DNA of 34,048 nt from Jimgerdemannia flammicorona (Eukaryota), in the NCBI GenBank assembly GCA_003990765.1, contig RBNJ01000287.1, forward strand, positions 1-34,048, in the 5' to 3' direction. Under the pieces are notes generated by a model. It was given only the letters and a program-made list of their open reading frames with translations, was not told where the DNA came from and searched no databases. A program made the position numbers and the translations under genes. Positions 3,810 to 26,838 of the stretch are shown piece by piece. How positions within the stretch are numbered: the first letter of the stretch is position 1; every line of letters begins with the position of its first letter.

Positions 3810-4409
3810 TGTGAGAGTTAATATGAACTAGTAATATGAATTAGAGAAATAGATATTTAATTATAGTACCTAAATCTAATTTATTCTTAAATATAATATA
3901 GTCTTACAAATAGTAGTTATATTTCACAAATATAGAAACTTTAACAGATATTAAAATATTTAAAGATATTAATGTATTTATAAATGTTAAAGTATTTATA
4001 GATATTAAAGTTTTGATAATTATTAATAATTTAGTAGATATTAAGAATTAATACTTATAAAGAATGATTTATAGGAAACAGCTATCTTATAACTAACAAA
4101 CTTGTATAAATATACCTAATATCTAAAGTGAATAAACCTAAGATCAAAATAGTTTAAAAAAAAGAAAAAATATAAGAACTAGTAAGTCTGTGAGCAAATA
4201 TACTTCAAACTTACCTATCTCTATATTCTGAAAACTCAGTAGAATCAAAGAAGATCAAGTTTTTAAAATATAGAAATCTGAAATACTTATATGTATAGTT
4301 ATATGTCTACTATATTATAACTTAGTATTTATTAGTTAGGAATTTAAGATGAATCTCTCACTTTTAAGCTAAATAATAAATAACTACTACCATCTGAATA
4401 ACTATATAA
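3810..4409 (+). mobile_element. Gypsy copy 0: degenerate 5' LTR (3810-4319) plus PBS/leader relic, interrupted by copy 1
   Basis: Begins TGTGA after ATAT. R/U5 (cttgtataaat...gtgaataaacctaagatcaaaatagttt) matches the other LTRs. 4320-4409 is a transition-mutated version of the leader at 22520-22610. Confidence 0.8.
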
Positions 4410-7400
4410 TGTAACATAGCAGACACTTACTCTTGAAAGTATATTGGATTTCTGTATCTTGAAAACTTGACTGTTCTGACTCTCACAGAGTCTCTTGAGT
4501 TGTAGGAGAGGGTGGGTGAGTTCAAAGTATATCTGCCTGCAGGCTTAAGTTCCTTTGCTATCTCTTTACTTTTGAACTATTTCAATCTAAGGTTTATTTA
4601 CTCTATGATACTAGATTATTTATACAAGTTTTGCTAACTATAAGGTAGCTAAGTAATGGCTCATTTCACAAGTGTTGAATCTTTTAACATCTGCTAAGAT
4701 TTTGCTAATCACAAAGATTCTAACATCTTCTAAATCTTTACAGACATTAAAGTTTCTGTGCTTTGCAAAATATGGCTGCTATTTTATAAGGCTAAGCTAT
4801 ATTAGGAATTAGATTCAAGTACCATGATCAAATGTCTAATTCCCCTAATTTATATTACTAATTCGGATCAGCCATCACATCTTCCTCCTGAATAGGTAAT
4901 TTATCTCAGAAGTATCCTATTCACTCAAATTTCCAGACTTCTACAATTTGTATTTTCTTATACTGTGTAATTTGTATCATTATATCCTTCCAGTGTTGTC
5001 TCTTATTATATCCAAAGTCTCCTGGGGTTATTTCTTGAAAATGGGCTAAGGCTAACTTGTTATCTTTGAATAACTTATACACTCTTTTTGCAATTGTGAT
5101 CTGAGTGTAGGAGAGCTGACATTCTCTGATTCAGTCTTCTTTTCCCATCTTTGGTCTTGAATTCAGTAGCTGTCCCAACTTGAAGTATTCCTGGAACTCA
5201 GTTTAGTTCTGGTAGGCCTTGAAATATAAGATTCGTGACAAGTATGTTTATACTATACTCTGGATGCTGTCAAAGGATTCTTCCATTGTTGGTGACTCTG
5301 TGGAATACTACTGTCTTTTGATGGCTCACTAGGCCATGCTAGTAATTCTGAGGGCAATAGTATTACTTCATTGACTGGTTATAATACTTCTTGAGTCAGT
5401 TTCAGTGGATGGTAGTTGGGATGATTGTGCCTGAGAGTTTTTGTAGCCAAAAGGTGGTTCCTTTTATATCTTGCACAAGGTAAGGTCTTTCCCACTTGGG
5501 CTCCAGTTTTCGTGACCATGAGACTTCTACCATATTCCAATATACCAGAACTTTGTCTCCTATCTTGATAATCTTCAGAGATTTGTGAGTTTTTTCTATA
5601 TTCTTCCATTGTAGTGCCTATGCCTTCATTATGTAATTCTCAGCCTTCTTAATTTGGTATAGTCTCCATATTTCTCTATCTATATGTTTCCATATAATAT
5701 CCCTATTGGATGATAGGGTTTCTTGAGAACTTTCTTCTCCAAACAACATTTCTCAAGAGGTAAAGTGGGTACTTTATGATCTGATATCTCAGAGAGCAGA
5801 TAATGCTATCGGCAGATAGTAATCTCAGCTTTCATAGTTATTACAGATCTTGGCAATAATATTCTTGAGGGTCTTATTGGTCCTTTCTACTTATCAGTTT
5901 TCTTGAGAGTAATAGGCTGTAGTCTGAATGTGCTGGATCTTGTACTTCTTGTAGAGGACCTCAAGAACTGGTTCACAAATTCTGTTCCTCTATCTATAGT
6001 TACTTGCATTGGGGTCTTGAACTGGCAGATGATTTCTTTGTAGAAGAAATCAGTAATTGACTATGTATTGGCTTCCTTGAGGGGTCCTGCTTCTATCTAT
6101 TTTGTAAAAAGATCTATGATGACAATAATATATCAGTTACCAGTCAAGATCAAGGGTAGAGGGCCAATTATATCTATTGCTATATGGGCGAATGGTACTG
6201 GTTCTATATGTACTGATCCTGGAGCTTGGTTTTGTTGGTCTTACTTCTGTTTCTGGCATTTGTCACAGATTTTGACAAATTGTCTGATATATTCTTCCAT
6301 TTCTGGCCACTATATCATTCTTCTTGCCTTGTCATATATATTTGTTCCTCCTAGATGGCCAAGTTCATGTACTGATTTCATTGCTTACTCCTTCTTATGT
6401 TCTGGTATGATAAGTAGTTTTCCTTTCTTTAGTATTTCTCCATTGGTTTCAAATTGTTTCTATGTTCTGTTGATAATCATTTGCATCCATTCTTTCAGAT
6501 GTTGGGGCATATTTTGCTGCTCCAGATATGTAATGATTCTATAGTAGAGCTCTTTATTCATAATTGATTTGTTGATTGGAGGTATTTTGAGGTATCCATG
6601 AGAGAGTATCTGCATTGGAATTTGTTCTTCCAGGGTAGTGTATAATAGTTACATCATAGGCTTGTAACTTCATTATCTATCTGGCATAGATTTCTTTGGG
6701 TTGTCCAGTTGTCAGTAGCTAGGTCAGAGCTGAGTGGTCTATCTGAATGGTGAAGTGTCTTCCAGCCAGATAGTAGTGGGACTTTTCCACAGCTCAGATG
6801 ATTGCGAGATATTCTAACTTATAGGATTCATATTCTTTTTCAGCTCCTCAGGTTCCTCAGCTTAGATATATAATGATATACTCTTTTTTGTCTTCCTTTT
6901 GAGCTAGAACTACTCCTAGTCTTTGTACACTTGCATCTGTCTGAAGAATAAATTCTTGAGTCCAATTGGGTCATCTGAGGATAGGTGCCTGGGTCAGTCT
7001 GACCTTGAGTTCATCAAATACTTTTTGTTGTCTATCTGTCTAGTTGAATTTAGTATCCTTCTTGTTGAGTTCATAGATTAGACCTGCAATATTGGAGAAT
7101 CCTCTGATAAATCTGCAATAGTAGAAGGCAAGTCCCATGAAGACTTGGGCTTCTGTGACAGTGGTGGGCCTTGGTATGCTGCTACTGCTTGTATTTTGAG
7201 GGGGTCCATATATATTCTATCTCGATTGATAACATGACCAAGATAGGAGATCTTGATTTCTACAAATTTGTATTCTTAGGCTTGATATACAGGTTATGCT
7301 TTCTCAGTCTTTCCATTATCTGCCATATATACTACAGGTGTTCCTCAGATGTCTTACTGTAGATGATTACATCATCAATATAGACCATCATCTATCTTCC

Positions 7401-9362
7401 CATATTATAGTGGAAGATTTTGTTTATCATTTGTTGAAAGCTTACTGGTACATTGCACATCCCGAATAACATTCATAGATAGATGTAGGTTCTGTCTAGG
7501 GTGATGAAGGCTGACTTTTTACTTGCCATCTCTGTGAGTTCAATTTGGTGGAATTCTGAGGATAAGTCCAAGGTACTGTAGTACTGTGCTTTGTCTCCCA
7601 GTATTATAAGGATGTTGCTGATGAGAGGCAGTGGTTGGCGATCCTTCTTGGTAACTGCATTGAGCTTTCTGTAATCGATACAGAGTTTTGGAGTGAATTC
7701 TCAAGGTTTGCTTCCTTTTTTCGGAGCTAGTACAACTGGTGAAGACCAGGGACTGCTGGCTTCTTTGATAATACCAGCTTCTTCCATCTGCTTGATTTCT
7801 TCTCTGAGCCATTCTCGGTAGACTGGTGGGACAGATCTTACCTTCTGGTAAATTGGTTCAGTGTCTCCAGTATCTACCTCATGATAGTAGTGTGGGGTCT
7901 TTCTCTTGATATCTTTGAAATCTATGGTGAGGATATCCTCGAATTTGTGGAGTATTTTCTTGAGTTCCTCCTTGAGTGGAAATTCATTTCCAATAGTATA
8001 ACTGTGCTTATTTGTGATTTCCTCCTTCTTATACTCCAGTTCAGTGATCTTGATACTAGTGAATACTCCTCTTTCTGTGGATCCAAATCCTTTCTTCCTC
8101 TTTTCGTTTCCTCTAAATTCTTGACTTCTGTGATCCTTGGTTGTAGGATTGGAAAGATTAATATCTGTGCCAATTGGTCCTTCTTCTTGACTGGGAATAG
8201 AATTGTAAGATTGTGATTCCTAGCAATGAGCAGGATTTCTCCAGTATAATCAGAATTGATGACTCCTCCTTCAATTGTAATTTTGCTTCTGGCCAGGCTG
8301 CTTCTTGTCTTGAGGATCCCAACATGATATTTTGAGATAGTCATCTCCAGTCCAGTTACGAGTAGAGTGGTTGTTTGGGGTTTTAGTACGGCTTCTTCTA
8401 CTGTGGCAATGTCCATTTCAGCTGCATTTTCTGACTTGTATTCTGGCAAGACTGCATCAGGGTGGGTCCTTCAGATCTTGAGCTTAATTTCTTCTTCATC
8501 ATTATTATCCTCCAGGAGGACTGGTGATTCATTATCTACCTCCTCTTTCTCTTCTCTAATCTATTTTTTGAGAGCTTTCTGTCTTCTTTCCTGGTGGATT
8601 TTCTTGATTCTGATGATGCACTGGTAGCCATCATTGATATGCTCCATATAGTACATCTTGATCTCATGAGAACAGACTCTGTGTGATATATAGTCTTTTG
8701 CAATCTTCTTACACTATTCTTCTTTGCTCATCCATCCAACTTTCTTCTTCAGAGTAGTTACCATATAAGCTTCCTCTTGCTTGCTCTCTTCTTCCTCCAT
8801 ATCAGGCAAGACTTCTTTATTGATATTGATGGGAATTCATATCTTCTGTCCCTGGTAGATAATTTGCATTTTCTGAGCATTAAGACCGATTACTGCCCTG
8901 GCTTTGTAAAGCCATTAATTACTGATGAGGATGTCATAGTTGTTGGCATTGATTATGATTACATCTACTGGGATGGTTGCTCCTCCAAACTTGATGGGGA
9001 CTTCTCAGATCTTTCCCAGAGGGGTGGCTCTTATGTCATCTGCTGTGACAAAAACCAACTTGGTTGCTTCTTCAACTTCCCAGCCTAGGTGGTCTGCTGC
9101 TTTCTTGCTGAGAAGACATCCTCCTACTCCAGTATCAATGATGGCTTCAAAGACTCTATCTTCAATTTGGTATTTTGCATAGGCCGAGGTTTTGCAATTG
9201 TCTTTACTTTCTTCTCCTGAGTTCTCTTGAACATTATTGGCCTCAGTTATCTTCCATCCTTGCTCCTTAGTTGTTTTGGTAAGTCTGAACCTCATTTGTT
9301 GTCTAAATGTTGGGATTTCTGTGAGCTGACCAAAGGTTGTATTGACCTTTTGTTGGCTAAGG
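4410..9362 (-). mobile_element. Gypsy copy 1: 5'-truncated dUTPase-bearing Ty3/gypsy retrotransposon (pseudogenised), 3' LTR 4410-4879
   Basis: Minus strand reads gag 3' part, protease (AIIDTG), dUTPase (7922-8449 ORF), RT (YIDD ~7371-7382), RNase H, integrase, ORF3, PPT (4880-4890) and LTR TGTGATGG...TTACA. Colinear with 23815-28861. Many stops. Confidence 0.92.
4921..5382 (-). pseudogene. ORF3 (env-position ORF) of gypsy copy 1
   Basis: 462-nt frame homologous to 27895-28356. Start codon mutated ATG>ATA; internal stops explained by transitions; ends ...VWKFE-TGA. Confidence 0.8.
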
Positions 9363-9638
9363 TGTCCTGAGTAGTTCTTTGATGATACTGTCACTTGGAC
9401 AGTTGGATTTTCTGACCATCTCTTATTTGCTAGTTTGATTTTTAGCTGGCCTTTCTTTCTTCATCATATGTCAGACCTCTGTTGCATATTCTAAGCTCAC
9501 CTGGATTGGTATAGCAAGTCTTACAACAACTCTATCAGACCCCTTATTGAGTTAAGCACCTTTCACCAGTAACATTCAGGTGACACAAGACTTAGAGAGC
9601 ACTTTTTACAACGTTTTTGGTGTCTGATGACTAACAAC

Positions 9639-11556
9639 ATGGATGGCAACGATCAAACTGGTGAGTGTACTGGCCAGGGGGGTGGCGGTGCCTTTGGCTG
9701 GCAATAGGTGGGGAGGAGGGGAGATGGTTTGGGGATGCCAGGGGCCTCGATGGCTAGCCGAGGCCCCAGCAGCAGAGGGAGGGGAGGACTGAGGCAGAGA
9801 GGAGGGGAGAGGTTGACTTTTGCTGACAAGGTCAGGTTGGGGAAGATGGCTTCTGGGCTGGATAGTTGGCTGGGCCTGGGGAAGGCATCAATGGCTACTG
9901 CCGGGGGTCTGGGAGGTGTACCCCAGGGAACTTCTGGTGGTAGAGAAGGGGCTGGAGTAGGGGCTGGAGATGTGACTGTTGATGAGGCTGGGACTAGGGA
10001 TCTGGCAAAAAATCCAGATATGACGGTGATTGGTAATTCGGGACTTGGAGTGGGCACGAGGTCTGGGGACCTGGTGGATGGGGTGACGGGCATGGTGTCG
10101 GCCCCGTTACTCAAGAAGTCGAGGTCCGAATTCGTGGTCACAATGTGCTTCTGGGGCTTGGCAGTGACGGCGAGGATGATTTTTGGGGCTGGTGGTACAG
10201 GAGGCTAAGGGAGCAGCATCGGTGAAGTTCTTGAGGGGAAAGGAAGGGGTTGAGGTGGGGTTTGAGGAGGAAGACACATTGTTGGCAGCCATGGAGAAGG
10301 GGGTGATGGTTGGCAGGGTTGTGGTCCCTATGGCCCGGTGTATATACTGGGACCCCTGGGTAGTGCAGTTGACAGTGTTGGACCTTTCTACGGTGTCGAA
10401 GGAAAGGACCAGAGAGTTGGTTGTGGAGGTGATCAAGGAGTATGGCGAGATTGTGGATGTTGGGTTCAAGGTCTGGGAGGGCACAGAGCTTCGAACCGGA
10501 GATGTCAATGTCAGGGTGAGACTGGCTGGAAAGGAGAATATGGGGAAGTCGAGGGACTGGCCAGCAGCACTGAGGTGAGGACCGGTGGAGTGTAAGGTCT
10601 CTAGGGTGAAGGGGACTCAGGAGGAGGAGGAGGACCTGTTGGAGGCTCTGGAGGACCTGGAAGGGGCGGTTGTAAGGAGGAGATTAGCCTGGAAGGAGTT
10701 TGAGGCCAGGACGGTGGTGGGGGAGATGGATGGGAAGAGGGTTCGGATGGAGAAGGGAGCCTGGGAGAAGATGCAGGAGAGGAGGATTCAGAAGGAGTTG
10801 TTGGTAAGGTTGGGTGGGGATAAGGCTGGTGGAAGCTCCGGGGAGGGAGCTGCAGGATTGCAGGAGAGCACCTGGGCTGAAGGGAGAGAAATGGCCCAGG
10901 GCGGGGCTCCGATTGGAGTTGGAGAGGGGAGGGAGGATATCTTGAAGGTGGATGCCGAAATGGGCGAAGGTGGGCACTCTCAGTATAGTGTTCCGAATGG
11001 AGCAGGAGGTGAGGAGGAGCTGATGGATGTGGCAGATGAGGAGTGGGATGAGTCAGTGTGGAGGAGCACGCTGGTGGACCCCAAGGTGGATGGGGGACAA
11101 ATTGCTCAGGGGGCAGCGGAGGCAGTAGATGAGGAGAAGTGGATGTGGAAGACTCTGGAAGGGGTAGCAGCTGAAGAGCTGGGGGGTGAGGACTTCAGGG
11201 TGATGGAGGAGAGACATTCGGAGGAGATTCTATGTAGGGAAGAGGTGCCAAGGAAGATGAGGAATGAGATCCTGGCTGTCCTCCTGGAGTCTGTTGAGTA
11301 TCAGGTGGATGATCAGCATGAGGAGGAGCTTAGAAGGATTGCGAGTGACAGGGCACTTGTCTTGTGGAACTCAAGGAAGGGACTAGAGAAGTGGCATATG
11401 GTCTGCTTGGATTATAGGGTGGATATGGAGGAGGTGGACAGGGTGGAGTATCAGGAAATCTTGGGGGCACTGGATGTACGGGATATTGCAGAGGGTGAAT
11501 TGGAGGCTGAGCAGCTCTTGGACTTGGCGAGGGATGAGATGAGCATGGAATTATAG
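9639..11556 (+). pseudogene. LINE ORF1 (gag-like), disrupted
   Basis: ATG at 9639 is in frame with ORF 9708-10208 (TAG at 9705). Frameshift near 10190, then 10183-10578 and 10585-11556 share a frame. Contains a TFADKV motif typical of LINE ORF1 and lies directly upstream of ORF2. Confidence 0.75.
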
Positions 11557-11587
11557 GTTGAAGTCTCTTCTACATTATCTACTCAAT

Positions 11588-14500
11588 ATGAACAGTATAA
11601 CTAGGATATTCTCATTGAACGTTAATGGGTTATGGGGGGCGGCTAGGAGGAAGTACATCTTTGGCTGGCTTCGTGGTCTGGATGCGGACCTCTTCTTGTT
11701 GTAGGATGTTTGGTATGATGCTGATGTAGATTGACAGGATTGGACTAGGGAATGGGGGAGTGCGGCAGTATGGCAGGGGAAAGTGGGTATTCTTGTCTAG
11801 AAAGGGATGGGGGACATTGGGGACATTGGACATTAGGGGTCACGGGTGGTGTGGGGAGTGTGGAAGAGGCCTGGATGGGGCTCGCTGATGGTTGGGTCTT
11901 GTTACTGCCCGGCTGAGAGAGGAGAGAGGGTAGATTGGATTCGCAGATTGAAAGAGACTGGTTCATTGAGAGAAGTTGGGTTTGACTGTATGGGGGGGGA
12001 CTTCAACATGGTGCAGGAAAAGGAGTTGGACAGAACTGATGGCGGGAGAGGCATGCGAGGTGAAAGTGGTGGGCTGGCGGACTGGTTGGAAATAGAAAGG
12101 TTGTGTTCGTTAGTGGACTCTGGGAGACATTTTTGGGCTGATCGGCGGGTGTATACCCATTGGGCAGCAGGACTGGGCTCTAGGATTGATTGGGTTCTAA
12201 CAGCAGAGTGTTGGGGAGCAGATGTCTGGATGGTGCTGGGAGTTGTATGGTGTCCATGGTCTGATCACTGGGGGTTGCTTGGAGGGGGGCGGTTTGGGGG
12301 AAATGAGGATGGGCCCAGACATTGGTGGCTAAATTCATCCTTGCTGGAGGATAGGGCATTGTGGGAGGGTTGGGAAACAGAGGTGATTGGAGATATCGGC
12401 AGGTGGCGGGATTAAGGACTGCCAATTGGGGATCGCTAGAGAAGGTTGAAGGTGAAGGCTCAGGGGTATTGGAGAGAGGCAGGGAAGGGAAAGAGTACTC
12501 AGCGAAGGCGGCAGGTGATGTGAGCCTCATGGCATTTGGCGGTGCTCATGGAGAAATGGGCAGGTGTGCTGGAGGATAGGGCCGAGACTAATTGGCATAT
12601 TGTGAGAATCCGGCAGGAGGTGGGGGAGCTCAAAGGGGTGCTACAGAGGGAGGAAGAGGAGTAGCTGCAGGGGATGGTGGCCCGCCTGCGATGGCAGGGG
12701 CTTGAGGATGGGGAGAGACCTACCAGGTTCTTGTCGTGGTTGTTGCAAGTGCGACAAACAAGGCAGCAGTGGGAGGGAGTTTTGGATGAAAATGACGAGC
12801 TGGTGGTGGGGACCCTGGCAATTTTGGGCCTATTGCAATCCCAGTGGGGGAACCTTTGGAGTGAGGATGAAGGAGGACTGGATGCTCTGGACATTGAAAG
12901 GCAGCTGCGGGATTGGCACCTGGACCCTGCCATGGGACTTGTGGCGCTGGGGGACCCGGTGAGCGGCGAGGAGATTTGTAAGGTGGTGGCCTCTACGAGT
13001 AAAGAGACAGCCCTGGGAGAGGATGGACTCCCCTGGGATTTTTGGAAGAAGATGACAGGGGTGCATGAGGTACTGGAGGAAATGATGGCTATGTGTAATG
13101 AAGTTCTTCAGTCTGGTGCCTGGATTGGGGGACAGCACTTGGGGCTGGTCTCCTTGCTATATAAGAACAAGGGCAGGAGGGAGGATTGGAAGAACTGGCA
13201 GCCGATCATGCTTCTGGACATGGACCGCAAACTGGTAACGAAGATCTTGGTATTGCAGTTGCAAGGGATTGCACAGCAGGAGCTTGGCTTAGAGCAACGT
13301 GAGTTTGTCAGTAGTCGGTTGATTCGAGATGAGATGGCCTGAGTTCATAGAGTAATTAAAGGTGCCTGGGCTACCGGAGTGGATGGCAGATTAGTATTTC
13401 TGGACCAGGAGAAGGCTTATGATAGAGTGCGGAGAGAATGGCTGGAGGGAGTGCTGAAGTGGATTGGTATCCCCCCAGGGTTCTGAGGTTCATTGATCAG
13501 CCTCTTGGAGGACAGTCAGGCAGTATTGGTCATCAATAGCCACTGGGGGGTGACCTTCCCCCTGGGTCGTGGGGTGCCACAAGGGGACCCCTTGTCACCC
13601 ATATTGTATGCTCTTTCCCTGGAGCCACTACTAGATAGGATTTGGCATAAGATTGGGGGTTTGGACATTTTAGGGGTGAACTAGAAGGTGGGGGCCTTCG
13701 CCGATGATATGGTGGTTGGATTGGGTTCCTTGGGGGATGTTGGCAAGTTGCAGAGGATGGTGGAATAGTACGAGCGGGGTTCTGGGGCCCAACTGAACTG
13801 GCACAAATGCGAGACGTTGGTGCTGGGTGCTGGAATTGTCGGTGGTGATGTTATTGGAAAGGTGGTTCCAGCTGGTGAACCAGTGTGCTACTTGGGGATC
13901 TACTTCTCGGTGTTCGGATATCTTCTTCCCTGAGCATGGTGGGACCATAAACTGCTGGAGTGGGGTGATGTCTTGATGTATTGGGGAGGCCGGCATATGT
14001 CCCTTGCTGGAAGAGTGATGGTGTTGAATGTGTACTGGATGACGAAGCTGTGGTATATTGGATATCATTTGGATTTTCCACCATGGGTGGTTACGAGGTT
14101 GCTGAAGATGGCGAGGTCATGGATTTGGGGAGGGCAGTGGAGCCAGGTTGGTTGGAAGGTGCTCACACTGCCCTTGGAGAGTGGTGGATTGGGCTTAGTG
14201 GACTTTACTAAGCAGCTTTTATGTCTGAGAGCCTGGTGGCTAAGGAGGGTGAGTGAGCTCAGAGGTTGGGAGTGGGTGCCACTCATGCAGAGGCTGTGGG
14301 AGGTTCGATACTCTCCACGTGGTGGCTCTGGTGACCTGCTTGCAATGGTGGCCATGGAAGGGAACTGGAGGATGCAGTTTACGGGCTTTTGGTGGGGAGC
14401 AGTAGATGGTGCTAAGAAAATTGGCCTTCGGTGGTGAGGTGATGAGGACGAGGAGGTTTGGGGACCGCAGATGTAGAGATGGGACAGGCTCCTATTGGGT

Positions 14501-15319
14501 GGTGCTCTGGTGGAGGACTTTCAGCTTGGCAAGGGTCTGGAGTGCCTGTGAGGCCTAGGTGGAGACCTGTGGCCTGAAGCCTGGCAGAGAGTTGGAATCA
14601 GGGAAGAGTGGGATTGGAATAGGCTCTAGCTTTGGAGCAAACAGGTGAGACAGTGGCTGCCCCCCAAGTTCTGGTTGGAATGATGGCAGATCCTACGGCG
14701 GAATGTGATGCTGAACTATCGGTCTGGTCACTTGGTAGATGGTGGGGTATTCAAGTGTGAGGATTGTTTCAATGTTAGTCAGGTGGGAGGGGTGGTACAA
14801 ATGCCTGAACATTGGCTTGGTGAGTGTGAGGTTTTGGGGGAGTTTTGGGGATGTATAAGGGACAGGTTAGGGTTGGGGGCTGGGGGAGAGGAGGGAGGGG
14901 GGAGATGGGGAGAGCTTCGCCAGTGATTAGTGGGTGGGGTTGGGGATGAATGGCTGACCCTTGGCTGGGCCTTGGCTATGTGGATTGGGTTGGTGGGGCA
15001 TTGAGTGCATGTATTTGAGGATGGGCATCGGGTTGGGGTTGGTGAAAAGGTGGCATGGTGGGAATGGTTGCTGTTGGACATTTTGAATAGCTGGTGGTGG
15101 GGTGGGGATATGGGTGGGGGGTACTACAGGGGTTTGGTGCAGTATATCTTCCAGAAGAGTAGTGGAAGGGTTCAGGTAGTGTGGGGTTGGGTGGTGCTTG
15201 GGCAGGGGGAGGTTGAGGGATGGGGGTTGGGCCCCTGGGGCATTGGTTGAGGGAGTGGGTGACATTATATTGTTAATACTATAGACTTCAGGAATAAAGG
15301 GCAGTTCAAGAGACTATAA
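11588..15319 (+). pseudogene. LINE ORF2: APE endonuclease + reverse transcriptase + C-terminal CCHC, disrupted
   Basis: APE motifs MNSITRIFSLNVNGL, GGDFN, SRIDW, WSDH. RT-region motifs WWLNSSLL, GEDGLP, NWQPIMLLDMDRKL, LDQEKAYDRV, GVPQGDPLSP, FADD, LNWHKC, YLG. L1/Tx1-type GRVMVLN and LPLESGGLGL. C-terminal CEDC...HWLGEC. Exact end uncertain. Confidence 0.9.
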
Positions 15320-16345
15320 AAAAAAAAAAAAAAAAAGACCCCTTAGTGAGTACTTTGTCATATATCTCATAAGTTCTATTATTGATAATTTCTAGTAATG
15401 GACCTTCTGGCTTAACTTCCTTAACTGATACTGGGACCTTCATCCATAGGTCTATAAGACTCACTTGCTCTATACCTTTCTTCAGTTATTTCTCCAGAAT
15501 TAGCTACTCTAAGAATGGGTGTCCTCTTTCCAGGCACTCATTTGATACATTACACCCAAAGACTGCTTTCTGTCTAGGAGTGCTAATTGTGTCCTCTTCT
15601 TTCCCCTTAGCTTATATATTCTGCCCTTATCTAGTACTATGGCTATTTTGGCCAACCCTACCCCTGCTCCTATAGAGATAAGTTATTTCATCATAGTGAT
15701 CTTCATAGGTATAGTCTTTTTGATAGTTCATATTCTACTTTCTAAGGAAATTCTGATTGTGATGAATAACTTGATTAGTTTACCAATGATAAATAGCAGA
15801 AGGAACTTCACATATACTCTCTTTATACTCTCCACAAAACAGCCTACTATGTTATAGATGTAATATATAATTCTGGTAGCTATCTTATAGTTGGATTTGG
15901 CCTGATTGAGATTATGAAGATACTTGAGTAATTGAGTGATCACTCCTTTTCTTTATTTCTTTCTTTTCTCTTATTTATCTTGGTTGGTTTCCTTATTATT
16001 GAGAGTATATTGAGTTATATATCTCTCATCAGTCATTTGGTTTTTGAGTGTTGATATTGTTTCTATAGTTGGTAATAAGAATTTGTATATTTTATCTTAG
16101 CTTCTTTTTTTCTTGCTTTTTATATTTATTATCTCTATATCTATAACAAAATAGTTTATCCAGCCCATCTATAGAGTGGTCATCTCTTTGGCCTTTATTT
16201 TATTCTTCTTAGCTAGTTGTTTACTTCACTGGTCTCTTTTTGTTTTACTCATCTTAGAAGTCTTAGCTATTTATTACTTAGATGTAGCTTATTTTCTCTA
16301 TAATGAATATATTCTTACTTACAGCCTAACCCTAACTCTAATCTA

Positions 16346-19129
16346 TAATTTTTTCTTTTGGATAGCCTTGGCTTTACTACCAAAGCTATTCCAAATTAAG
16401 AAAGCAGTCACTTTGATTAGCAAAGCCTCATTTCAGATATATATACTCATTTTTTATTAATTTTTATTATACAACAAAGATTACATAATCTGTATTTTAT
16501 AATTTTACAAATATAAACAAATATCCCAGCTTATTTTAGCAATGTCAGCCATCTCCTCTGTCATCAGTGATGATATATCACTACCTGTCTCTTTATAAAC
16601 TTCAGTATATCTTTTTACTATTTCAAGTATCATAGTATTGGCCTTCTTTCTCTTGGCTTTAGTGAGGGTTTCCTTATAGAAATGTGTAGATTGTACAGGG
16701 ATGTATAATCAATATTGGTAATTTATTTTTACTATATGATATTGAGAATAATGAAAAGATTATAATCTCTTCTAATTCTGATCATGATACTCAGTATATC
16801 TCTTACTCTTCTATGCTCTTGCTCTCACTCACAATAAGTATAGTCACCTGAATACTAGTTTGAGAGTAACTCTTATATGTATAGGCCCTTTAGTTGGCCC
16901 TGATTTAGTCATAGAGATGACTATGATAAGAATGTAAATCTCAGATCTACTGACTCAAGTAGCTGATTTGGCCAAAATCAATGCCCAACTAATGATATAG
17001 TTTGCTATACAATCTGTACCCATCACTCTCTAATCATCTGGTACTTCTTCAGAAAGAACCTCTATCATCTATCTATTACTGCTTTCCTCAAGTCTTCAGC
17101 ACCTCCTCCTACTAGTCCTGCTGTGAACATATGGTCAAAGGCCTAAAAATAAGCAGATGAGCAGACTACTAAAGATACTATATCTTTAGCTAGAGTGATA
17201 TCTTAGGAGGCAACTCCCATAATTACACTAATGGCACTGAAGTCTGTATACCTCAAATAGAGTATAGGTAAGATATTTCTAGTACTTCAGGCTATGCTCA
17301 TGGGTCCTAGTATCACTGGTCTATCTATATTCTCTTCTTCAATCCTCATGATCTACAAATTGTATGCCACTGTATCAAGAAGATTTCTATCAAAGATAGA
17401 ACTCAGGCCTACCCCAAGATGAAAAGAGCTGCTACTGTTGTAGCTCTTTTGTAAATAAGCTACAAGCTATTCTCTCATTTATCACTAACTAAGAAGGATA
17501 TATAGCTATAGCACATCTCTCTCTTGGGCTCTTATTTGCTTATAATACATATCACTGTTGCTTCTTATACTACTACTGAGTATCAGAGAATAATTGACTT
17601 TTATAAAGCTTAGCTCACAGTAAATAGCATAGAGCTCAATCTCAAGATATATAATTATATTGACCCAGCTAACTGTACTGTACTGATTGAGGATGAGCTA
17701 TATCTATAACCCTCCTCCTATATGTACCTGGGCATACTATATATAAAGAAAGGATTCGACTTTATTGATCTTGTATTATGTAATGCTATAAAGGCAGAAT
17801 GAACTCTTGGGTTCTATTATGCCTGATCACCAATAATCAGGCTAGATATCATATATATATATCATTATTAGGCCTTAGTTAGAGTATGGGCTTTCACTCT
17901 TATAAGCTTCCTATCTAACTACTACTATGAGACTTCAGGTGTTAAAATATTCTTAGCAGGTCTTCAATAATACTATTGCTTGGACAGTTGGGTTTTCTGA
18001 CTTTCTCTTACTTGGTAGTTCTATCTTTAGTCTTTCTTTATTCTTTTGTTGAACATTGGATCTTACTATTTATTCTAAGCTTATTTGGATTAGTATAGCA
18101 AGTCTGGCAACAACCTTATCACTCCTCTTAGTGAGTACTTTGTCACATATCTCCCAAGTTCTATAATTGACAAGTTCTAGCAATAGACCTCTTATATAGC
18201 TTGACTTCTTCAACTAGTACTGAGATCTTAGTTCTCAGGTCTATAAGACTTACTCACTTCACTTCTTCCTCTAGTCCTTTTTTTAGGATCAATTGCTATA
18301 GAAATGGGCCTTCTCCTTCCAGGCTCCCATTTAGTATATCACACTCTATAGTTACTTATAGTTAAGAAGAGCTAATTATGTCCTCTCCTTCCTCCCCAGC
18401 ATATGTTTTTACTTACCTGGCATTATGACAACTTTGGCCAACTCTGCCATTACTCTATAAAGATAAGTTTTATCATGCCTATCTCAATAGGTATAGTCTT
18501 TTTGACAGTTCATATTCTGCTTTCTAAAGTAATTCTGATTATAATGATCAGCTCAATTGATTTATCAGTGAGGAAGAGTAGAAGAAACTTTATGGCTACC
18601 CTCTTCATGCTCTTTATGAGATAGCCTATCATACAATAATGCTATAGGCAATTCTGGTAGCCATCTTGCTATTTGGTTCTGCTCTACTGAAATTACAAAA
18701 ATACTTAAGTGATTAAGTGATTATATATTTTCTTTATATTTTTTCCTTCTCCTCATTCACCTAGTTGGTTCTCTTGTTGTTGAGATTGTACTAAGTTATA
18801 TATCTCATGTTAGTCATGATATTTGGGTGTCAATATTATTTCTATAGTTAGTACTGAGCTTATATATATTTTATTTAGCTTCTCTTTTCATTGCTTTTCA
18901 TATTTATTATCTTTTTAACTATTTCAAAATGGTTTATCCAGCCCATCTATAAGGTGATCAGCTCTCTAAACTTTATTTTATTCTTCTTAGCTATTATTTA
19001 CTTCACTGGCCTATTTTTTGCTTTTTTCATCTTAGGAGTCTTTGCTGTTTATTGCTCTGATATATCTTATCTTCTCTATAATAAATAAACTCCTACTTGA
19101 AGCATAACCCTAACTGTAACCCTAACCCT
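16346..19129 (+). mobile_element. Telomere-repeat-tailed non-LTR element, unit B (probable 5' UTR + ORF1, internal deletion, RT C-half, 3' end)
   Basis: Candidate ORF1 from ATG 16542 (KCVDC; coiled-coil-like ISDLLTQVADLAKINAQL). RT remnant LFA-x-x near 17535, LTVNSIELNLK, and intact YMYLGI at 17719-17736. Tail cataaccctaactgtaaccctaaccct at 19103-19129. Confidence 0.72.
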
Positions 19130-21660
19130 CTATTACAATAATCTTTGGTCTCTGATACCATTTGTGGTTTTAAGTGAGCATACTACTCTATTCCTCTCAC
19201 TATCCTCCAATCTTACTCTCCTGCTCTCTCAGTATTTGAGAATGTGATTTTCTATTTTATTACTATCTTTGGCTAATCAAATATCTCCTTATACCTTAAT
19301 AACTCTGAGTACATCTTCTTCTGGCCCTTGGACTGCAGTCTTGGTTTGACCAACCTATAGATTAGAGGGTCATCTATAGCAACTCTCTCATAAATGCCTA
19401 CTGTACTGACTCCTTATATTTTCAGATCCTTTGAGTAATAGTAGGTAAGAAAGATACCCCCTATAGTCTGATGAAAGTCTTATTCTTTTTCTTCCAGATA
19501 TGTATGGTTTGGGGGCTTACTCTTTACTTCTAGAACTCTACCATCATTACTCCTATTTCCAAGGAGGAGGAATTATAACCAATTGATGATTTTTACCCTA
19601 TTGCTCTCACTGAAATATTTTGCTGACTCTTCAAATTATACTTAGAAGTTATATCAAATTCCAAAACAGTCTGACAGAAATGTTGTACTGCCAGAATGGC
19701 TTCTGAACCTGTTTCTTATACCTTTCCTATGTCTTATCCTCAGATAAGATATAGAATAAGAGGTAGGACTACTATATCTTTCTTAACCTTTAGTAGACAT
19801 ATGCCAAGTTCCCCTCAAGCTCATTCTTTCTTGACTTGAGGTATGAGGAGCCAATGTAGCCCTCCTTAGTATTATTTGTAGTCTCTTCAACTACTATTCC
19901 TATCAGATAGTTATTAATGGCCTTATCACCCCTCTGGTCTCCACTGAGTGCAGTCTCTGTCAGAGCTCTCTTTACTCTTCCTGGCTCTTCAAATTTTATT
20001 GACCTTCTCACTATCACTTTTGATAACTAGTTTAAGGAGTATGACTTCTCTATTAGGCTCTTCTTTACTAATAATATTGCTCTCACCCCTTGTACTGCCA
20101 CTGAGGGTCCAAGGATGATTGACTTTTATAAGAATTGACTTATGGTAAATAGTATAGAACTCAATCTCAAGAGTATAGTTATGTTAGCCCAGTCAACTGT
20201 ACTATATAGATTGGGGGTAAGCTATATCTGTAACCCCTCTCCTATGTATATCTGGGCATACTGTATACCAACAAAGAATTTGACTTTATTAGTTTTATAT
20301 TGCAAAATATAAAATATGATAAAGGCAGAATGAACTCTTGAGTTCTATTATACCTATAGTCCTCTCTAATTATTAATAGTCAAGCTGACCATCATATATT
20401 CTTTTATCAGACCTCAGCTATAATATGACCTCTCTCTTCTATGAGCTTCCTATCTGGCTAATACTATAAGACTTCAGATATTGAAGCATCCCAAGCAGAT
20501 CTTTGATGATACTATTGCTTAGATGGCTGGATTTTCCAGCTGACTCCTGTTTGATAGCTCAATTCTTGGTCTCTCTTCCTTTCTTTATCCCATATCAGAC
20601 CTTTGCTATATATTTCAAGCCCACCTGGATTGATGTAATAAGTCTGACAACAACTTCATCAATACTCTTAGTGAGCACTTTGTCACATACTCTCCAGATT
20701 CTATTATTAATAAGTTCTGGTGATAAAACTCTTAGCTTGACTTCTTTGACTAGTACTGAGATCTCTATTCTCAGATTTATAAAACTCACTCACTCTGCTC
20801 CTTTCTCCAGTCTTTCTTTTGAGATCAGTTGCTATAGAAATGAGTCTTTTCCTCTCAGGCTCTTATTCAGTATATTATTCTCCATAGCTAGTTATAGTTA
20901 TAGGAGGCTGATGGTATCCTCTCCTCCTCCCTCTGGCTTATATGCTCTACTTATCAGGCACTATGGCTATTTTGACCAATCCTGCCTCTGTCTCTGTAGA
21001 GATAAGTTTCATTATAACTATCTCTATAAGTATAGTCTTCTAATAGTTTCTATTAGACCTTCTGAGAATAATAGTCATAAACAACTTGACTGATTCACTA
21101 TAATGAGTGGTAGGATAAACTTTATATCTACCCTCTTCATACTCTTCATGAGATAACCTACTATATTATTATTGATATATATAAATCTGGTAACTTCCTT
21201 GGAGTTGGGTTTTGTTTAACCAAAATTATAAAGATACTCAGATGATCAAATGATTATAAATTTCTTTATATTTTTTTCTCCTTCTAATTATTTATCTTGG
21301 TTGATTTCTTTGTTATTGAGAGTGCATTGAATTATTCATCTCATATTAGTAATATGGTATTTAGTTGATAATACTAGTTCTATATTTAGTATTAGACTTA
21401 TGTAAATTTTATTTTAGCTCTTCTCTTCTTTACTTTTTGCATTTATTATTTATTATCTTTATGGCTGTGACAAAATGATTTATCCAGTCTAACTATAGAG
21501 TGATCACTTCTCTAGTTTTTATTTTGTTCTTCTTAGCTAGTTATTTACTTTACTAATCTCTTTTTATCTTTCTTATCATAGAGTCTTTGTCATTTGTTGC
21601 TCTAATATATCATTTCTTCTCTAGTGAATTAATTCTTACTTGAAGTCTATCCCTAACCCT
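19130..21660 (+). mobile_element. Telomere-repeat-tailed non-LTR element, unit C (5'-truncated; RT domain and C-terminus)
   Basis: Transition-eroded RT motifs in the correct order: NSTIITPISK 19534, DDFYPIALTE 19585, QNGF* 19692, IFLNL**TY 19776, SLCQSSLYS 19952 (GLRQGSP-like), FTNNI 20064 (FADDI after G>A), NSIELNLK 20148, YLGI ~20250. Plus-strand ORF 20503-21093 contains CLCRDKFH. Tail ctatccctaaccct at 21647-21660. Confidence 0.85.
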
Positions 21661-21722
21661 TATCAATGAATAAATTCTTACTTGATCCTAACCCTAACCC
21701 TAACCCTATCCCTAACCCTAAT
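21647..21722 (+). repeat. Interstitial telomeric (CCCTAA)n tracts flanking a 24-nt copy of the element's 3' terminus
   Basis: ccctaaccct (21651-21660), then atcaatgaataaattcttacttga (21662-21685), then cctaaccctaaccctaaccctatccctaaccctaa (21687-21721). Confidence 0.85.
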
Positions 21723-22247
21723 TCAAACCAAATTAATTGTTATCTCCCCTCTATTACTCTTGAAGATTTAGTAAGCTTTACTTTAAGAGTAGATAATATA
21801 TTATTATAATAAAAGATATATTAATAAATATTAATATAAAAGCTTTAATTTAGATATTTTCTTAGTTACTAAAGATTCCTCAATTTACTTGGGAATAGTT
21901 TAATATACTTAGTTGGTTGATTAATTCTACTCTTAATATTCTTTTTATTATAAATACTATGTTATATTTTAATATATATTTCTATATTCTTTTATATATT
22001 CTTAATATTAATTTATTTATTATTATATTATAATTGTATATTCCTTACATATTGTGATGGTATAGCCAGATTCAGAGAAGGAAATAGGGAATAGACACTT
22101 GATTGCACCCAGTCCCCAAAGTAGTATAACCACATAGTTAACAGTCCTCAATTTCGCAACTTGCTAAATATTTCACAAAGTGCAAGATTGAGCTCCCTGA
22201 TATAGTATAGCATTTCACAACTGGCAAAATATTTCGCAAAGTGTTAA

Positions 22248-22334
22248 ATGACTCATAACTTAGCCATGTAACCCAGTAACCATCTCATAGCTAGCAAACT
22301 TGTATAAATAACCCAGTATCTTCAAGTGAATAAA
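22248..22334 (+). promoter_or_regulatory. LTR regulatory core: ATGACTCAT (Gcn4/AP-1 consensus), TATAAATA box, AATAAA
   Basis: ATGACTCAT 22248-22256, TATAAATA ~22304, AATAAA 22329-22334. Same arrangement in the LTRs at 28394, 28940 and 33738. Confidence 0.55.
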
Positions 22335-22633
22335 CCTCAGATCAAAATAGTTTAAATCAAAGAGATAGCAAAGGAACTAGTAAGCCTGCAGGCAGATATA
22401 CCTTGAACTCACCCACCCTCCATTGCAACTTCAAGAGACTCTGTGAGAGTCAGAACAGTCAAGTTTTCAAGATACAGAAATCTGATGTACTTTCAAGAGT
22501 AAGCATCTGCTACATTACAACTTGGTGCCAATTGGCTGGTGATTCAAGATGAATCCCTCACTTTCAAGCTGAACAATGAACAACCGCCACCACCCGAACG
22601 ACCATACAAACTGAGCTGTAATACCCAGACAAG

Positions 22634-25600
22634 ATGGATATGAGACTACCAGTATTCCACAGATATACTTCAGATGAATCAATTATCACCTTCATTGACG
22701 ATTTCAAGTAGTATGCTGCTGTAATGACCCTGATAGCAGCACAGCAAGTAGCCCTCATGCCCTTTAGCCTACGAGGCCCTGCTAGAGTAGTATTCATAGC
22801 CGCAACCCATGCAGAAAATGATGCCGATAATATACTGATAGCACAGAAGACCTGGCTCCAAAATACATATTATACATATGAGATCAAGCAAGCTCTAAAG
22901 GATCAGCTCAATACAATATGCCAAGGAATGAGTAAGGATCCAAACACATTCCATACCAGAATTTGATATCAGATAATCCTGGCAGATTATGCTGCTGCTA
23001 TCCGAGATTAAGTAGCCAAGACAACCTTTATAAAAGGAGTCCACCCAGAAATAGCTATGGCTATCTGCTCATCACCAGTAATTCTGGATCTACCACAAAA
23101 GGTCACCTATGCTCAGCGATACTAGATAGCCAGACATCCACAAGACCATACAATGGAAAGGATCACAGGAGTCAGAATCAAGGCACCCAAGGCAACTAGT
23201 GTGATCCCTACCACAATGATCAATCAAAATACACCTCAGCCAAAAGCTACAAAGCAGCAAAAGAATAGTGACCCTATGGAGGAACTCACCAAAAGGTTTG
23301 CCAAAATGACTGCCCATCTGGGGGATATGGTAAAAGAAATTCGAGGAAGAGACCACCGCCCTGTCCAGAAGTTTGTTACTGCCTCAGACAAGAAGAAAGG
23401 CACCTGCTATACTTGCAGAGAAGAAGGCCACTACTCCTATGAATACATGAGCGAAACCAAGCACAAGGCTCAACCAAGCAATGCTATATGAAACAAGGAG
23501 TAGGCCAATATAATTACCTTCGAGGAGATTGGAGATTCTGATGAAGAAGAATGGGAGGCCTATCCTACTCAGACTACCAAGAAGGATGCTCGCAAAGAGT
23601 CCTACAAGAGACCACCAGGAAGACTCAAGAAGAACCCAGTGGAAAAGCAGATAGAAACTACCACAGAAAGCCAAGCCAAAGAGATGGACCAAGATACAGA
23701 GCTGGAGCAAGCAGTTCAAGATATCATCTGAGGAACCACTCTAGCCAGTGAAGGAGAAAAAGAAAAGAAGCTTCGCAAGACCAAGACCTTCAAGTATGAT
23801 ATCTTCAAGGATCTCAGCCAACAAAAGGTCAATGCAACCTTTGGTCAGCTTGCAGAAATCCTAACATTAAGACAGCAAATGAGGTTTGGACTTGTCGAAA
23901 TAACTAAGGAACAGGGATGGAAGATAACTGAGGCCAATAACGTTCAAGAGGACTCAGGAGAAGAAAGTGAGGACAATCACAAAACCTCTACACATGCAAC
24001 ATGCTAAATCGAAGATAGAATCTTTGAGACCATCATTGATATAGGAGCAGAAGGATGTCTCTTCAGCAAGAAGGCAGCAGACCACCTAGGTTGGGATGTA
24101 GAAGAAGCAACTAAGCTAGTGTTTGTCATAGCTGATGGCACAAGAGCCACACCTCTGGAAAAGATCTGAGATGTTCCCATCAAGATTGGAGGAGCAACCA
24201 TCCCAGTAGATGTAATTGTAACTAACGCCACCAACTATGACATCCTCATTAGCAATCAATGGCTTTACAAAGCCAAGGTAGTAATCGATCTCAATGCCCA
24301 GAAGATGCAGATCACCTACCAGGGACAGAAGATATGAATTCCCATTAATGTCAACAAAGGAGTCCTGTCTGATATGGAGGAAGAAGAGAGTGAGCAAGAG
24401 GAAGCTTATATGGTGACTACTCCAAAGAAAAAGAAAGTTAGATAGATGAGTGAAGAAGAATAGTGTAAGAAGATCACAGAAGATTATACCCCACAAGGAG
24501 TCTGTCCTCATGGGATCAAAATATACTACATGGAGTATGTCAATGATTGCTACCAGTGCACTATCGGAATCAGGAAGATCCAGGAAAGTAGGCAGAAAGC
24601 TCTCAAAAAACAGATCAAGGAAGAAGAGAAGGAGGAAGATGATGAACCACCAGCTCTCCTGGAGGACAGTGATGATGAAGAAGAAATCAAGGTCAAGATC
24701 CAAAAGATCCACCCTGATGCAGTCTTGCCAGAATACAAGTCAGAAAATGCAGCTGGAATGGACATTACTACAGTAGAAGAGACTGTACTGGAACTCCAGA
24801 CAACCACCCTACTTGCAACCGGATTGGAGATAACCATCCCAAAGGATCATGTTGGGATTCACAAGACAAGAAGCAGCCTGGCTAGAAGCGAAATTACAAT
24901 CGAAGGAGGAGTCATCGATTCAGACTACACTGGAGAAATTCTACTCATTACTAGGAATCACAATCCAACAATCTCATTTCCAGTCAAGAAGAAGGACCGA
25001 TTGGTGCAAATGTTGATCTTTCTGATCTTACAACCAAAGATCATAGAAGTTAAGAAGCTGGAGGAAACAAGAAGAGGAAAGAAAGGATTTGGATCCATAG
25101 GAAGAGGAGTATTCACCAATACCAAGATTACCGAACTCAAGTATAAGAAGGAGGAAAACACAAGCAAGCTCAGCTATATCATTGGAAATGAATTTCCATT
25201 TAAGAAAGAACTCAAGAAAATACTCCACGAATTCGAAGATGTCCTTGCCACAGATTTCAAGGATATCAAAGGAAAGACCCCATACTACTATCATGAAGTA
25301 GATACTGGAGACACTGAACCAATTTATCAGAAAGCAAGACCTGTCCCACCAGCCTACCGAGAATGGCTCAGAGAAGAAATCAAGCAGATGGAAGAAGCTG
25401 GTATCATTAAAGAAGCCAGCAGTCTCTGATCCTCACCTGTTGTACTGGCCCCAAAAAAAGGTAGCAAGTCTGGAGAATTTGCCCCAAGACTCTGTGTTGA
25501 CTACAGAAAACTCAACATGGTTACCAAGAAGGATCACCAACCCCTCATCAATGACATCCTCATAACACTGAGAGACAAAGTACAATACTACAGCATCTTG

Positions 25601-26746
25601 GACTTATACTCAGGATTCCACCAAATCAGACTCACAGATATGACAAGTGAAAAGTCAGCTTTCATCACTCCAGATGGAACCTATGTCTACCTATGAATGC
25701 CATTTGGAATGTATAATGCACCAGCAAGTTTCCAGTGAATGATGAATAAAATCTTCTGCTATGATATGGGAAGATGGATGATAGTCTACATCGATGATGT
25801 AATCATCTACAGTAAGATATCTGAGGAATATCTGCAGCATATATAGCAGATAATAGAGAGACTAAGACAAAATGACCTTTATATCAAACCCAAGAAGTAC
25901 AAGTTCACAGAAATCAAGATCTCCTATCTCGGCCACATCATCAAGTGAGATGGAACAAACATGGACCCCCTCAAGATACAAGCAGTTGTAGTATACCCAA
26001 GACACACTACTGTTATGGAAGCCCAAGCCTTCATGGGACTCGCCTCCTATTATCACAGATTTATTAAAGGATTTTCTAATATTGCGGGACCAATCTATGA
26101 ACTTAACAAGAAGGATATCAAGTTCCTGTGAACTGGCAAACAACAAAAAGCATTTGATGAACTCAAGGTCAGACTGACCCAGGCACCCATCCTCAGAAGA
26201 CCTGACTGGACTCTAGAATTCATCCTACAGACTGATGCAAGTGCACAAGAACTAGGAGCAGTCCTAGCTCAAAAGAAAGAAAAAGTGGAGTATGGCATCA
26301 CATATCTCAGCTGCGGAACCCGAGGAGCTGAAAAAGAATACGAATTCTACAAGTTGGAATGCCTCGCAGTCATCTGGGCTATAGAAAAGTTCCACTACTA
26401 CTTGGCTGGAAGACAATTCACCATCCAAACAGACCACTCAGCTCTCATCTGGCTACTGACAACTGGACAACCCAAAGGAATCTATGCCAGATGGATAATG
26501 AAGTTGCAAGCTTACGATGTAACTATCGTATACCACTCTGGAAGAACCAATGCTAATGCTGACACCCTCTCACAGATACTCTGAAAGACCCCACCCCTAC
26601 AAAATCATCATGAATAAGGAGCTCTACTATGGAATTATCACATATCTGGGATAGCGAAAGATGCCCCAATATCTGGAAGAATGGACATAAACGATTATTA
26701 ACAGAACATGGAAACAATTCAAAACTGACAGAGGAACACTGAAGAG

Positions 26747-26838
<92 letters not shown>

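Follow-up and report, generated by a model that had tools for sequence, protein, structure and literature searches.

Telomere-specific long interspersed nuclear elements (LINEs) are already known as a kind, and GilM and GilT are further known retrotransposons that target telomeres. TRAS and SART end in poly(A) and have CCHC knuckles in the product of their first open reading frame (ORF1), Zepp carries poly(A) and has a tendency to insert into copies of itself, and Athena and Coprina elements have 3′ ends joined to reverse-complement telomeric repeats, with copies that are truncated at the 5′ end. The subject of the present analysis is an array of LINE copies and telomere-like repeats in Jimgerdemannia flammicorona, at positions 9363-21722 of a stretch of 34,048 nucleotides (contig RBNJ01000287.1, assembly GCA_003990765.1, positions 1 to 34,048 of the forward strand), the whole of which is referred to below as the window. 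The best explanation of this array, with a probability of about 0.62, is that it consists of old, decayed, 5′-truncated copies of an apurinic/apyrimidinic endonuclease (APE)-type LINE that was specific for telomeric (TTAGGG/CCCTAA)n repeats and inserted by target-primed reverse transcription, working like the telomere-specific LINEs already known.

TRAS and SART of Bombyx mori are described as APE LINEs that occupy a fixed position in the telomeric repeat, lie in one orientation, and form arrays within the repeats (PMC7265360, PMC2868851). The window family resembles TRAS1 and SART1, which belong to the R1 clade, in all three respects, with the difference that TRAS and SART target TTAGG and the window family TTAGGG. 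The marks of the R1 clade, poly(A) at the junction and CCHC knuckles in ORF1, were found in neither place where they were sought, as the window copies lack poly(A) at 4/4 termini and ORF1 of their relatives lacks the knuckles.

By its description, the nearest described analogue is probably Tx1-1_ACar of the green anole (Tx1 clade; Kojima and Jurka 2013), cited in PMC10088271 as a LINE in (TTAGGG)n. This element is L1-like/Tx1 and telomere-specific and has a vertebrate host; the likeness is drawn from that citation. The same source lists Zepp of Chlorella vulgaris as an L1-like LINE at telomeric regions (PMC10088271). Zepp is not known to have a counterpart to the fixed telomere-repeat junction of the window LINE. 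Fungal telomeric retrotransposons of the CRE clade (MoTeR, FoTeR, and Cnl1) have a single ORF with a C-terminal PD-(D/E)xK (restriction-like, REL) endonuclease, given as the mark of the clade, and are similar to the window family in the TAACCC repeats that follow the sense strand, in their truncated copies, and in their arrays at chromosome ends (PMC12857005). Athena and Coprina are reported at chromosome termini (PMC8557442). In the literature covered, which did not include Repbase reports, no description of an APE-type telomere-specific LINE from fungi was found.

Organization of the array

The span 9363-21722 is part of a cluster of transposable elements in the window. Its features are as follows, RT standing for reverse transcriptase, UTR for untranslated region, and TSD for target-site duplication.

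9357..9551, plus strand: unit A, post-RT region (5′ piece), bordered on the 5′ side by a truncated gypsy element
9552..15336, plus strand: nested L1-like LINE, unrelated to the telomeric element; G-rich, with APE motif, RT, poly(A), and 14-bp TSD
15351..16324, plus strand: unit A, 3′ piece, C-terminal ORF and 3′ UTR, terminus …TTCTTACTTACAG
16325..16344, plus strand: telomere-like tract 1, CCTAACCCTAACTCTAATCT
16345..17514, no strand assigned: segment X, after tract 1, with no tract between it and the 5′ end of unit B
17515..19102, plus strand: unit B, C-terminal ORF to about 18710, then 3′ UTR, terminus …CTCCTACTTGAAG
19103..19129, plus strand: telomere-like tract 2, CATAACCCTAACTGTAACCCTAACCCT
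19130..21645, plus strand: unit C, the longest copy, RT motifs 0-7 at about 19450-20270, terminus …TTCTTACTTGAAG
21646..21664, plus strand: telomere-like tract 3, TCTATCCCTAACCCTTATC
21665..21686, plus strand: micro-copy consisting of just the final 22 nt of the element (AATGAATAAATTCTTACTTGAT), the fourth match to the terminal motif, with 2 mismatches
21687..21721, plus strand: telomere-like tract 4, at 35 nt the longest, (CCTAAC)n with one variant

The preliminary description of this DNA recognized three homologous units in the same orientation. Their homology and orientation stand, and the map has been redrawn: unit A is split, the former unit B comprises segment X and a 1.6-kb copy, and a fourth copy of 22 nt, flanked by tracts 3 and 4, has been added. 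Unit C extends upstream of the RT and is the only copy with the N-terminal half of that domain, and unit B is 5′-truncated just before RT motif C (FADD). At the left edge of the array, homology of unit A to units B and C begins at 9356-9358 and that of the neighboring Ty3/gypsy element to its sister copies stops at 9361-9363; these limits overlap by a few bases, and the edge is therefore a junction between a truncated gypsy element and a 5′-truncated unit, not a telomere.

Junctions with telomeric repeats

Four copies in the window have the terminus …TTCTTACTTGAAG, all on the plus strand, and each runs directly into degenerate CCTAACCC repeats. The 23-nt motif AATGAATAAATTCTTACTTGAAG, searched with at most 3 mismatches, has four matches, all plus, ending at 16324, 19102, 21645, and 21687, compared with an expected count of 0.00 and no match in 100 shuffles. 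Exact CCTAACCC words behave likewise, as 7/7 of those in the window lie inside the four tracts on the plus strand (expected 0.87, largest count 4 in 100 shuffles). The tracts are short and degenerate, 2-6 repeats long, and differ from each other in length and sequence, and the junction register is constant in 4/4 copies, with the terminus followed by C[C/A/T]TA[A/T]CCCTAA. No run of A precedes the tract at any of the 4 window junctions. At all four, the 3′ end of the copy thus meets telomeric repeats with the same orientation and register. The copies are truncated at different points on the 5′ side (C upstream of the RT, B at RT motif C, the stub at 22 nt, and A at 9357), and the earlier account of a common terminus that leads straight into CCCTAA repeats, with no poly(A) and with variable 5′ ends, holds at 4/4 termini.

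At 21745-21766, 25 nt to the right of tract 4, the sequence …CTCTATTACTCTTGAAG resembles the element terminus (…TTACTTGAAG) and has no telomere repeats after it; it may be a further decayed remnant or a chance likeness.

Homology and decay of the copies

Units A and B are 75% identical and units A and C 73%. Identity between B and C is 63-77% over the shared part (0.63-0.77 by windows), in comparison with 0.41-0.48 upstream of B 17500 / C 20029, and transition-tolerant local alignment places the start of B-C homology at B 17515 / C 20044. Transitions account for 351/443 of the polarisable differences among the three copies. The commonest polarised change is T>C (116/443), meaning that two copies often have T where the third retains C and, hence, that the same sites were mutated independently. 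CpG is almost absent from the units (observed/expected 0.00-0.02). The ratio rises to 0.10-0.23 for the gypsy copies, 0.33 for the nested LINE, and 1.0 for the initial 2.6 kb of the window, a pattern of loss that appears to fit methylation-type CpG decay better than repeat-induced point mutation (RIP) of the Neurospora type.

Reverse transcriptase of unit C

A profile of the RT was built from 65/72 L1/Tx1-like RT proteins retrieved as relatives of the nested LINE and was aligned to the DNA with a purpose-written profile-to-DNA aligner that allows frameshifts and that can, at a cost, read T as a former C and A as a former G. The plus strand of unit C scored 135.4 bits, whereas 60 dinucleotide shuffles had a mean of 53.2 (standard deviation 6.0, largest 69.2), the reverse complement scored 51.5, and the reversed sequence scored 56.0. 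Divided by region, the part unique to C (19133-20043) gave 98.1 bits (shuffles 29.2 ± 3.9, 0/100 as high, sub-region z 17.6), the part of C that is common to B (20044-20330) gave 26.0 bits (0/100 shuffles as high, sub-region z 4.1), and the matching part of B (17515-17800) gave 20.6 bits (8/100 shuffles as high). RT motifs 0-7 occur in order and with normal spacing on the plus strand of unit C, including …PK…RPIAL, VNG…RQGSP.SP.LF, and FADD. Unit C encodes a LINE-type RT on the C-rich (plus) strand. The preliminary description had read ordered RT motifs after reversal of C>T/G>A changes (FRPIAL, QNGF, FLDL..AY, GLRQGS, FADDI, YLGI), had taken the C-rich strand as sense, and had classed the RT as LINE-type; the motifs were recovered on the plus strand of unit C, and the profile scores uphold the other two points.

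The RT signal in unit C is visible only when frameshifts and reversal of C>T/G>A changes are allowed. Raw translations of the units in six frames, with stops as X, matched no Pfam family at E up to 1, and phmmer comparison of a raw 177-aa frame of unit C with PDB sequences found no RT and one chance match, to a chloroplast protein (E 0.38). A de-mutated consensus of the three units had no long ORF and scored 36 bits, below unit C alone; the alignment behind it is spurious upstream of 17515. Assignment of the C-terminus to zf-RVT (PF13966) or to a 'GGLG' box was rejected, as neither was significant against nodes 600-775 of the L1 profile.

The C-terminal ORF

A word-indexed protein search with residues 287-585 of unit C produced 0/1200 candidates at E <= 1. 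A profile made from the C-terminal segments of A, B, and C that lie in frame was then run against 1,835,955,588 representative proteins and had two matches at E <= 0.001, namely P0213 (E 4.5e-43), a protein of 289 aa from a 1357-bp assembled contig, and a long repetitive protein (3.7e-4) that was taken as a chance match. P0213 represents the C-terminal ORF of the units in a much less decayed state. In tblastn searches (E 1e-9 to 2.5e-35), P0213 matched the plus strand of unit A at 9330-9545 (residues 27-98, E 1.1e-15) and 15339-15925 (E 1e-9 to 2e-16), unit B at 17873-18710, and unit C at 20376-21239, the last being the best match (E 2.5e-35). This match puts the end of the unit C ORF at about 21239, leaving a 3′ UTR of about 406 nt, and identifies the true Cys/His motif as CPCGERFSRRHLRTC.

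P0213 has no Pfam family and no PDB match, and Atlas offers for it only clusters without a name and a structural resemblance to the post-RT parts of various RT proteins. When metagenome contigs were scanned with a protein pattern of P0213, none of the 98 pattern matches was confirmed. Among 215 stored proteins, about 90 of them from L1-like LINEs, P0213 matched only P0215 (E 6e-12; next best 0.23), the product of a long open frame at a metagenome locus described below. By blastp, the match covers residues 796-1023 of P0215 with 26% identity over 239 residues (E 3e-13), and the two proteins have in common …LAWR.G.FG…C.CGERF.R.H..C. Their Cys/His motif, CxCx7Hx2-4C, differs from that of zf-RVT, and neither P0213 nor the C-terminus of P0215 has a Pfam match to a domain of zf-RVT type (PF13966).

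Relatives in metagenomes

When metagenome DNA was scanned for the terminus in R/Y-degenerate form, followed by CCTAACCCTAACCC, 29 loci were returned; since this pattern contains telomere repeats, the share of relatives without such repeats is not readable from them. The majority (22/29) resemble variant telomere arrays with no link to the LINE family. The other 7/29 (L006, L010, L014, L017, L018, L024, and L029) share the terminus …GCTCGGGG joined to CCTAACCC, which belongs to a unit of about 0.8 kb and not to the LINE, and LINE copies lie in the same arrays. As the search pattern matched the 0.8-kb unit, the likeness of the LINE copies to the window in terminus and register was not imposed by the search.

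Intact LINEs are among these copies. At L018, a frame of 1089 codons is open (P0215) and matches RVT_1 at E 3.8e-29; at L014, a near-identical copy is represented by its 5′ part, which comprises a separate ORF1 of 316 codons (P0217) and the start of ORF2 (P0216). Among solved structures, the RT of P0215 is closest to L1 ORF2p (1.9e-14), followed by R2 (1.2e-12), and it scores 180 bits against the L1/Tx1-like RT profile, which is composed of L1/Tx1-like proteins only. The alignment of a P0215 profile to unit C extends as far as the C-terminus (188.3 vs 99.1 ± 7.5), and its alignment to unit B has z 3.2.

The LINE ends in these relatives read …ACTTGATT joined to CCTAACCC. Six termini are available (three in L010 and one each in L017, L018, and L024), with the form …ACTT[A/G]A[T/C]T joined to CCTAACCCTAA, and at 6/6 LINE junctions the register is that of the window's …ACTTGAAG joined to CCTAACCC. 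A reading of the window terminus CTTGAAG as a decayed CTCGGGG was dropped, because the metagenome LINEs have ACTTGATT-like ends and CTCGGGG belongs to the different unit. Every tract of the five larger loci has the same orientation, GGGTTAGG occurring 0 times on the opposite strand, and truncated LINE copies alternate with 0.8-kb units, with 11-25 nt of repeats between them.

The 0.8-kb unit was delimited at L018:6015-6803 (minus strand; 3921-4709 in element orientation), where it ends …GCTCGCTCGGGG and is joined to CCTAACCC in the LINE register. It is also present in L010, L014, L017, L024, L006, and L029, and a 5′-truncated form of 122 bp occurs in L024. This unit may be a non-autonomous telomere-targeted retroelement, though its terminus differs from that of the LINE.

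Probable endonuclease of the relatives

The first 240 residues of ORF2 in P0216 contain the APE motif series MNANSL, FIAE, VYYPP, LGDIN, PDH, and TDH, and in an alignment with seven L1-type APE domains the N, E, Y-P, GD-N, D, and D-H motifs fall column for column. The relatives thus probably carry an APE-type endonuclease domain, and the window's own family, all copies of which are truncated before this region, would have carried one as well. ORF1 of the relatives (P0217) has no motif like CX2CX4HX4C.

Proposed mechanism and alternative explanations

The anatomy of the array, its sense strand, its LINE RT, its fixed junction register, and the presence of intact relatives in similar arrays are established; insertion of an APE-type LINE into telomeric repeats is the account proposed for them. 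Because the sense strand is followed by CCTAACCC, the first cDNA strand is expected to have been primed by …GGGTTAGG-3′ on the G-rich strand, and the identical register (4/4 in the window, 6/6 in the relatives) points either to a nuclease that cuts at one repeat position or to pairing of the RNA 3′ end with the repeat. Given the probable APE of the relatives, nick-primed insertion into telomeric tracts, as in TRAS and SART, would be the simplest account, with the nuclease presumably setting target specificity. The endonuclease would nick the G-rich strand at one fixed repeat position, and the freed 3′ end (…GGGTTAGG-3′) would prime reverse transcription from the 3′ end of an element RNA without poly(A). 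Frequent early stops of reverse transcription would produce the variable 5′ truncations and the 22-nt stub. New copies would insert into the repeat tract next to older copies or distal to them, yielding a head-to-tail array with few repeats between units, and an insertion order of C, then B, then A would match the layout. Later decay by CpG-centered C>T/G>A changes and indels, together with the L1-like insertion in unit A and the flanking gypsy insertions, would have left the copies dead and the array internal.

Several results weigh against this explanation. The putative APE domain of the relatives has no Pfam match at E up to 10 and none among PDB sequences, its hhalign probability is 0.6%, its hmmsearch score is 4.4 bits with 3/500 shuffles as high, and a single-sequence AlphaFold model of the region has a predicted local distance difference test (pLDDT) score of 31. 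No window copy reaches the endonuclease region, so that the APE of the family depends on relatives about 26% identical to P0213 in the C-terminal domain. As DNA, the 3′ UTRs do not align between the window copies and the L018 element, which look alike in only about 7 terminal bases. The metagenome loci, found through a telomere-demanding pattern, do not show how frequent repeat-free relatives are, the RT signal of unit B alone is marginal (8/100 shuffles as high), and segment X is unexplained.

The alternative that survives best, itself unlikely, is endonuclease-independent priming at a chromosome end, in which the RNA 3′ end pairs with the TTAGGG overhang and copies are added serially, with telomerase repeats between them, so that the array is a fossil telomere. 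Its uniform orientation is the polarity expected of a left chromosome end, and the fixed register, the repeats before truncated 5′ ends, and the 22-nt abortive copy between two tracts are in keeping with end priming, as is the orientation of four metagenome loci, in which the element side faces the contig end. Endonuclease-bearing LINEs are, moreover, also able to use free ends. However, nick-primed insertion within a telomeric tract would yield all of these features just as well, and every catalytic motif is in position in the APE-like domain that the relatives retain. The tracts are also only 2-6 repeats long, kilobases of non-telomeric DNA follow them in the contigs of the relatives, and the distal array edge in the window is the truncated gypsy junction instead of repeats. 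The natural G-rich overhang that was originally put forward as the primer accordingly loses ground, since the aligned APE motifs of the relatives, weak as their statistics are, favor nick priming as in TRAS and SART.

Duplication, tandem or segmental, of one insertion plus its telomeric tract is very improbable. The units are close together and similarly diverged from each other (72-77% identity), as duplicates might be, but their 5′ ends differ (C 19130, B 17515, stub 22 nt), the four tracts are unlike in length and sequence, segment X lies beside one unit only, and many C/T and G/A sites were hit independently in 2/3 copies, as the T>C count above indicates.

There is similarly little to recommend a fungal CRE-clade retrotransposon of the MoTeR/FoTeR/Cnl1 type with a C-terminal restriction-like endonuclease. 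Such elements share with the array its single orientation, its head-to-tail series of truncated units, and 3-7 TAACCC repeats after the 3′ ends, as described for FoTeRs (PMC12857005). Against this, P0213 and P0215 have no conserved PD-(D/E)xK (REL) motif, by eye, in the approximately 65 residues that follow the Cys/His motif, where Pfam likewise has no match; the relatives have a separate ORF1 and an APE-like N-terminus; and the RT of P0215 is nearer to L1 ORF2p than to R2 and scores well with the L1/Tx1-like profile, as given above. Judging from these proteins, the telomeric LINE is not a MoTeR/Cnl1 (CRE-clade) element, in agreement with the preliminary description, which had seen no such nuclease after the Cys/His cluster.

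An endonuclease-deficient Penelope-like element of the Athena/Coprina type, with an RT related to telomerase, would have terminal anatomy and an association with telomere repeats in common with the array, but it is a highly improbable reading, as the RT aligns full length to a LINE profile (the only kind compared) with LINE-typical motifs, and ORF1, an APE-like domain, and a C-terminal Cys/His motif are present in the relatives.

Nested and neighboring sequences

The nested LINE at 9552-15336 is 5785 bp long, makes up 47% of the reported span, and splits unit A. It has poly(A) at 15318-15336 and a 14-bp TSD, GACCCCTTA[T/G]TGAG, at 9538-9551 / 15337-15350. Its RT matches RVT_1 at E 1.5e-23, and its relatives carry PF00078, PF03372, and PF13966, APE and zf-RVT domains included. 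Comparison of this RT with the telomeric units by phmmer found no match. The element has a strong strand asymmetry (G 40%, C 14%), and its ORF2 frame remains in register for about 3.7 kb save for point stops. Its closest relatives are metagenome proteins with up to 70% identity, followed by proteins of Mucorales, a basidiomycete, and plants.

Segment X (1.17 kb) resembles neither unit C nor any other part of the window. It has no RT, ORF1, or ORF2 signal on either strand by profile alignment, no Pfam match in six frames, and no match to the metagenome units. The possibilities that it is an inverted or 5′ part of the LINE family, or a 0.8-kb unit, were rejected, as the alignments gave no signal for either. 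It may have arisen by template switching or transduction, or may be a separate element.

Three Ty3/gypsy copies, with a dUTPase domain between protease and RT, lie at 4500-9362 (minus), 22052-28935 (plus), and 28936-34048 (plus). The minus-strand copy breaks off at 9361-9363, at the start of unit A, and the two plus-strand copies are adjacent, with long terminal repeats starting at about 22052, 28393, 28936, and 33737. The gypsy pol has at most 47% identity to its best matches, animal proteins among them, and Atlas gives a faint indication of Basidiomycota for the gypsy element. A pure run of 86 A residues interrupts the integrase region of the first plus-strand copy (26747-26832); beyond it the coding frame resumes with a short duplicated peptide, and the run looks like an insertion or a slippage artefact.

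Positions 1-2600 are the only part of the window in which CpG is not depleted, and purines predominate on the plus strand of their first kilobase. The six reading frames of this part match no Pfam family, and it may be unique, unmethylated DNA. The segments 2600-4500 and 21760-22040 are extremely AT-rich (GC down to 10%), with many short tandem repeats and no CpG. Their low CpA/TpG and high TpA give them a more RIP-like profile than that of the other repeats in the window.

Significance

Retrotransposons that target telomeric repeats are few, and they are used to study how LINEs find their targets and what part mobile elements play in the maintenance of chromosome ends. The LINE family described here adds another independent solution, with a nuclease that is probably of APE type, no poly(A), and a fixed TTAGGG register. 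Taken together, and as a tentative proposal, the window copies and their relatives may represent an undescribed lineage of telomeric-repeat-specific APE-type LINEs without poly(A) and with a C-terminal domain of its own (…AWR.G.FG…CxCGERFxRxH…C), distinct from the fungal CRE-clade elements and from TRAS/SART of the R1 clade. Intact members in environmental eukaryotes would share their arrays and the CCTAAC insertion register with the unrelated, retroelement-like unit of about 0.8 kb that ends GCTCGGGG, maybe a non-autonomous partner, and such mixed arrays may build or buffer chromosome ends.

For annotation, the array shows that a short interstitial CCCTAA tract in a repeat-rich region can be the footprint of such an element instead of a chromosome fusion. 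The window copies are dead and have no evident present function, and the interest of the locus lies in the family to which they belong, in its intact relatives, and in the mixed arrays that those relatives form with the 0.8-kb unit.

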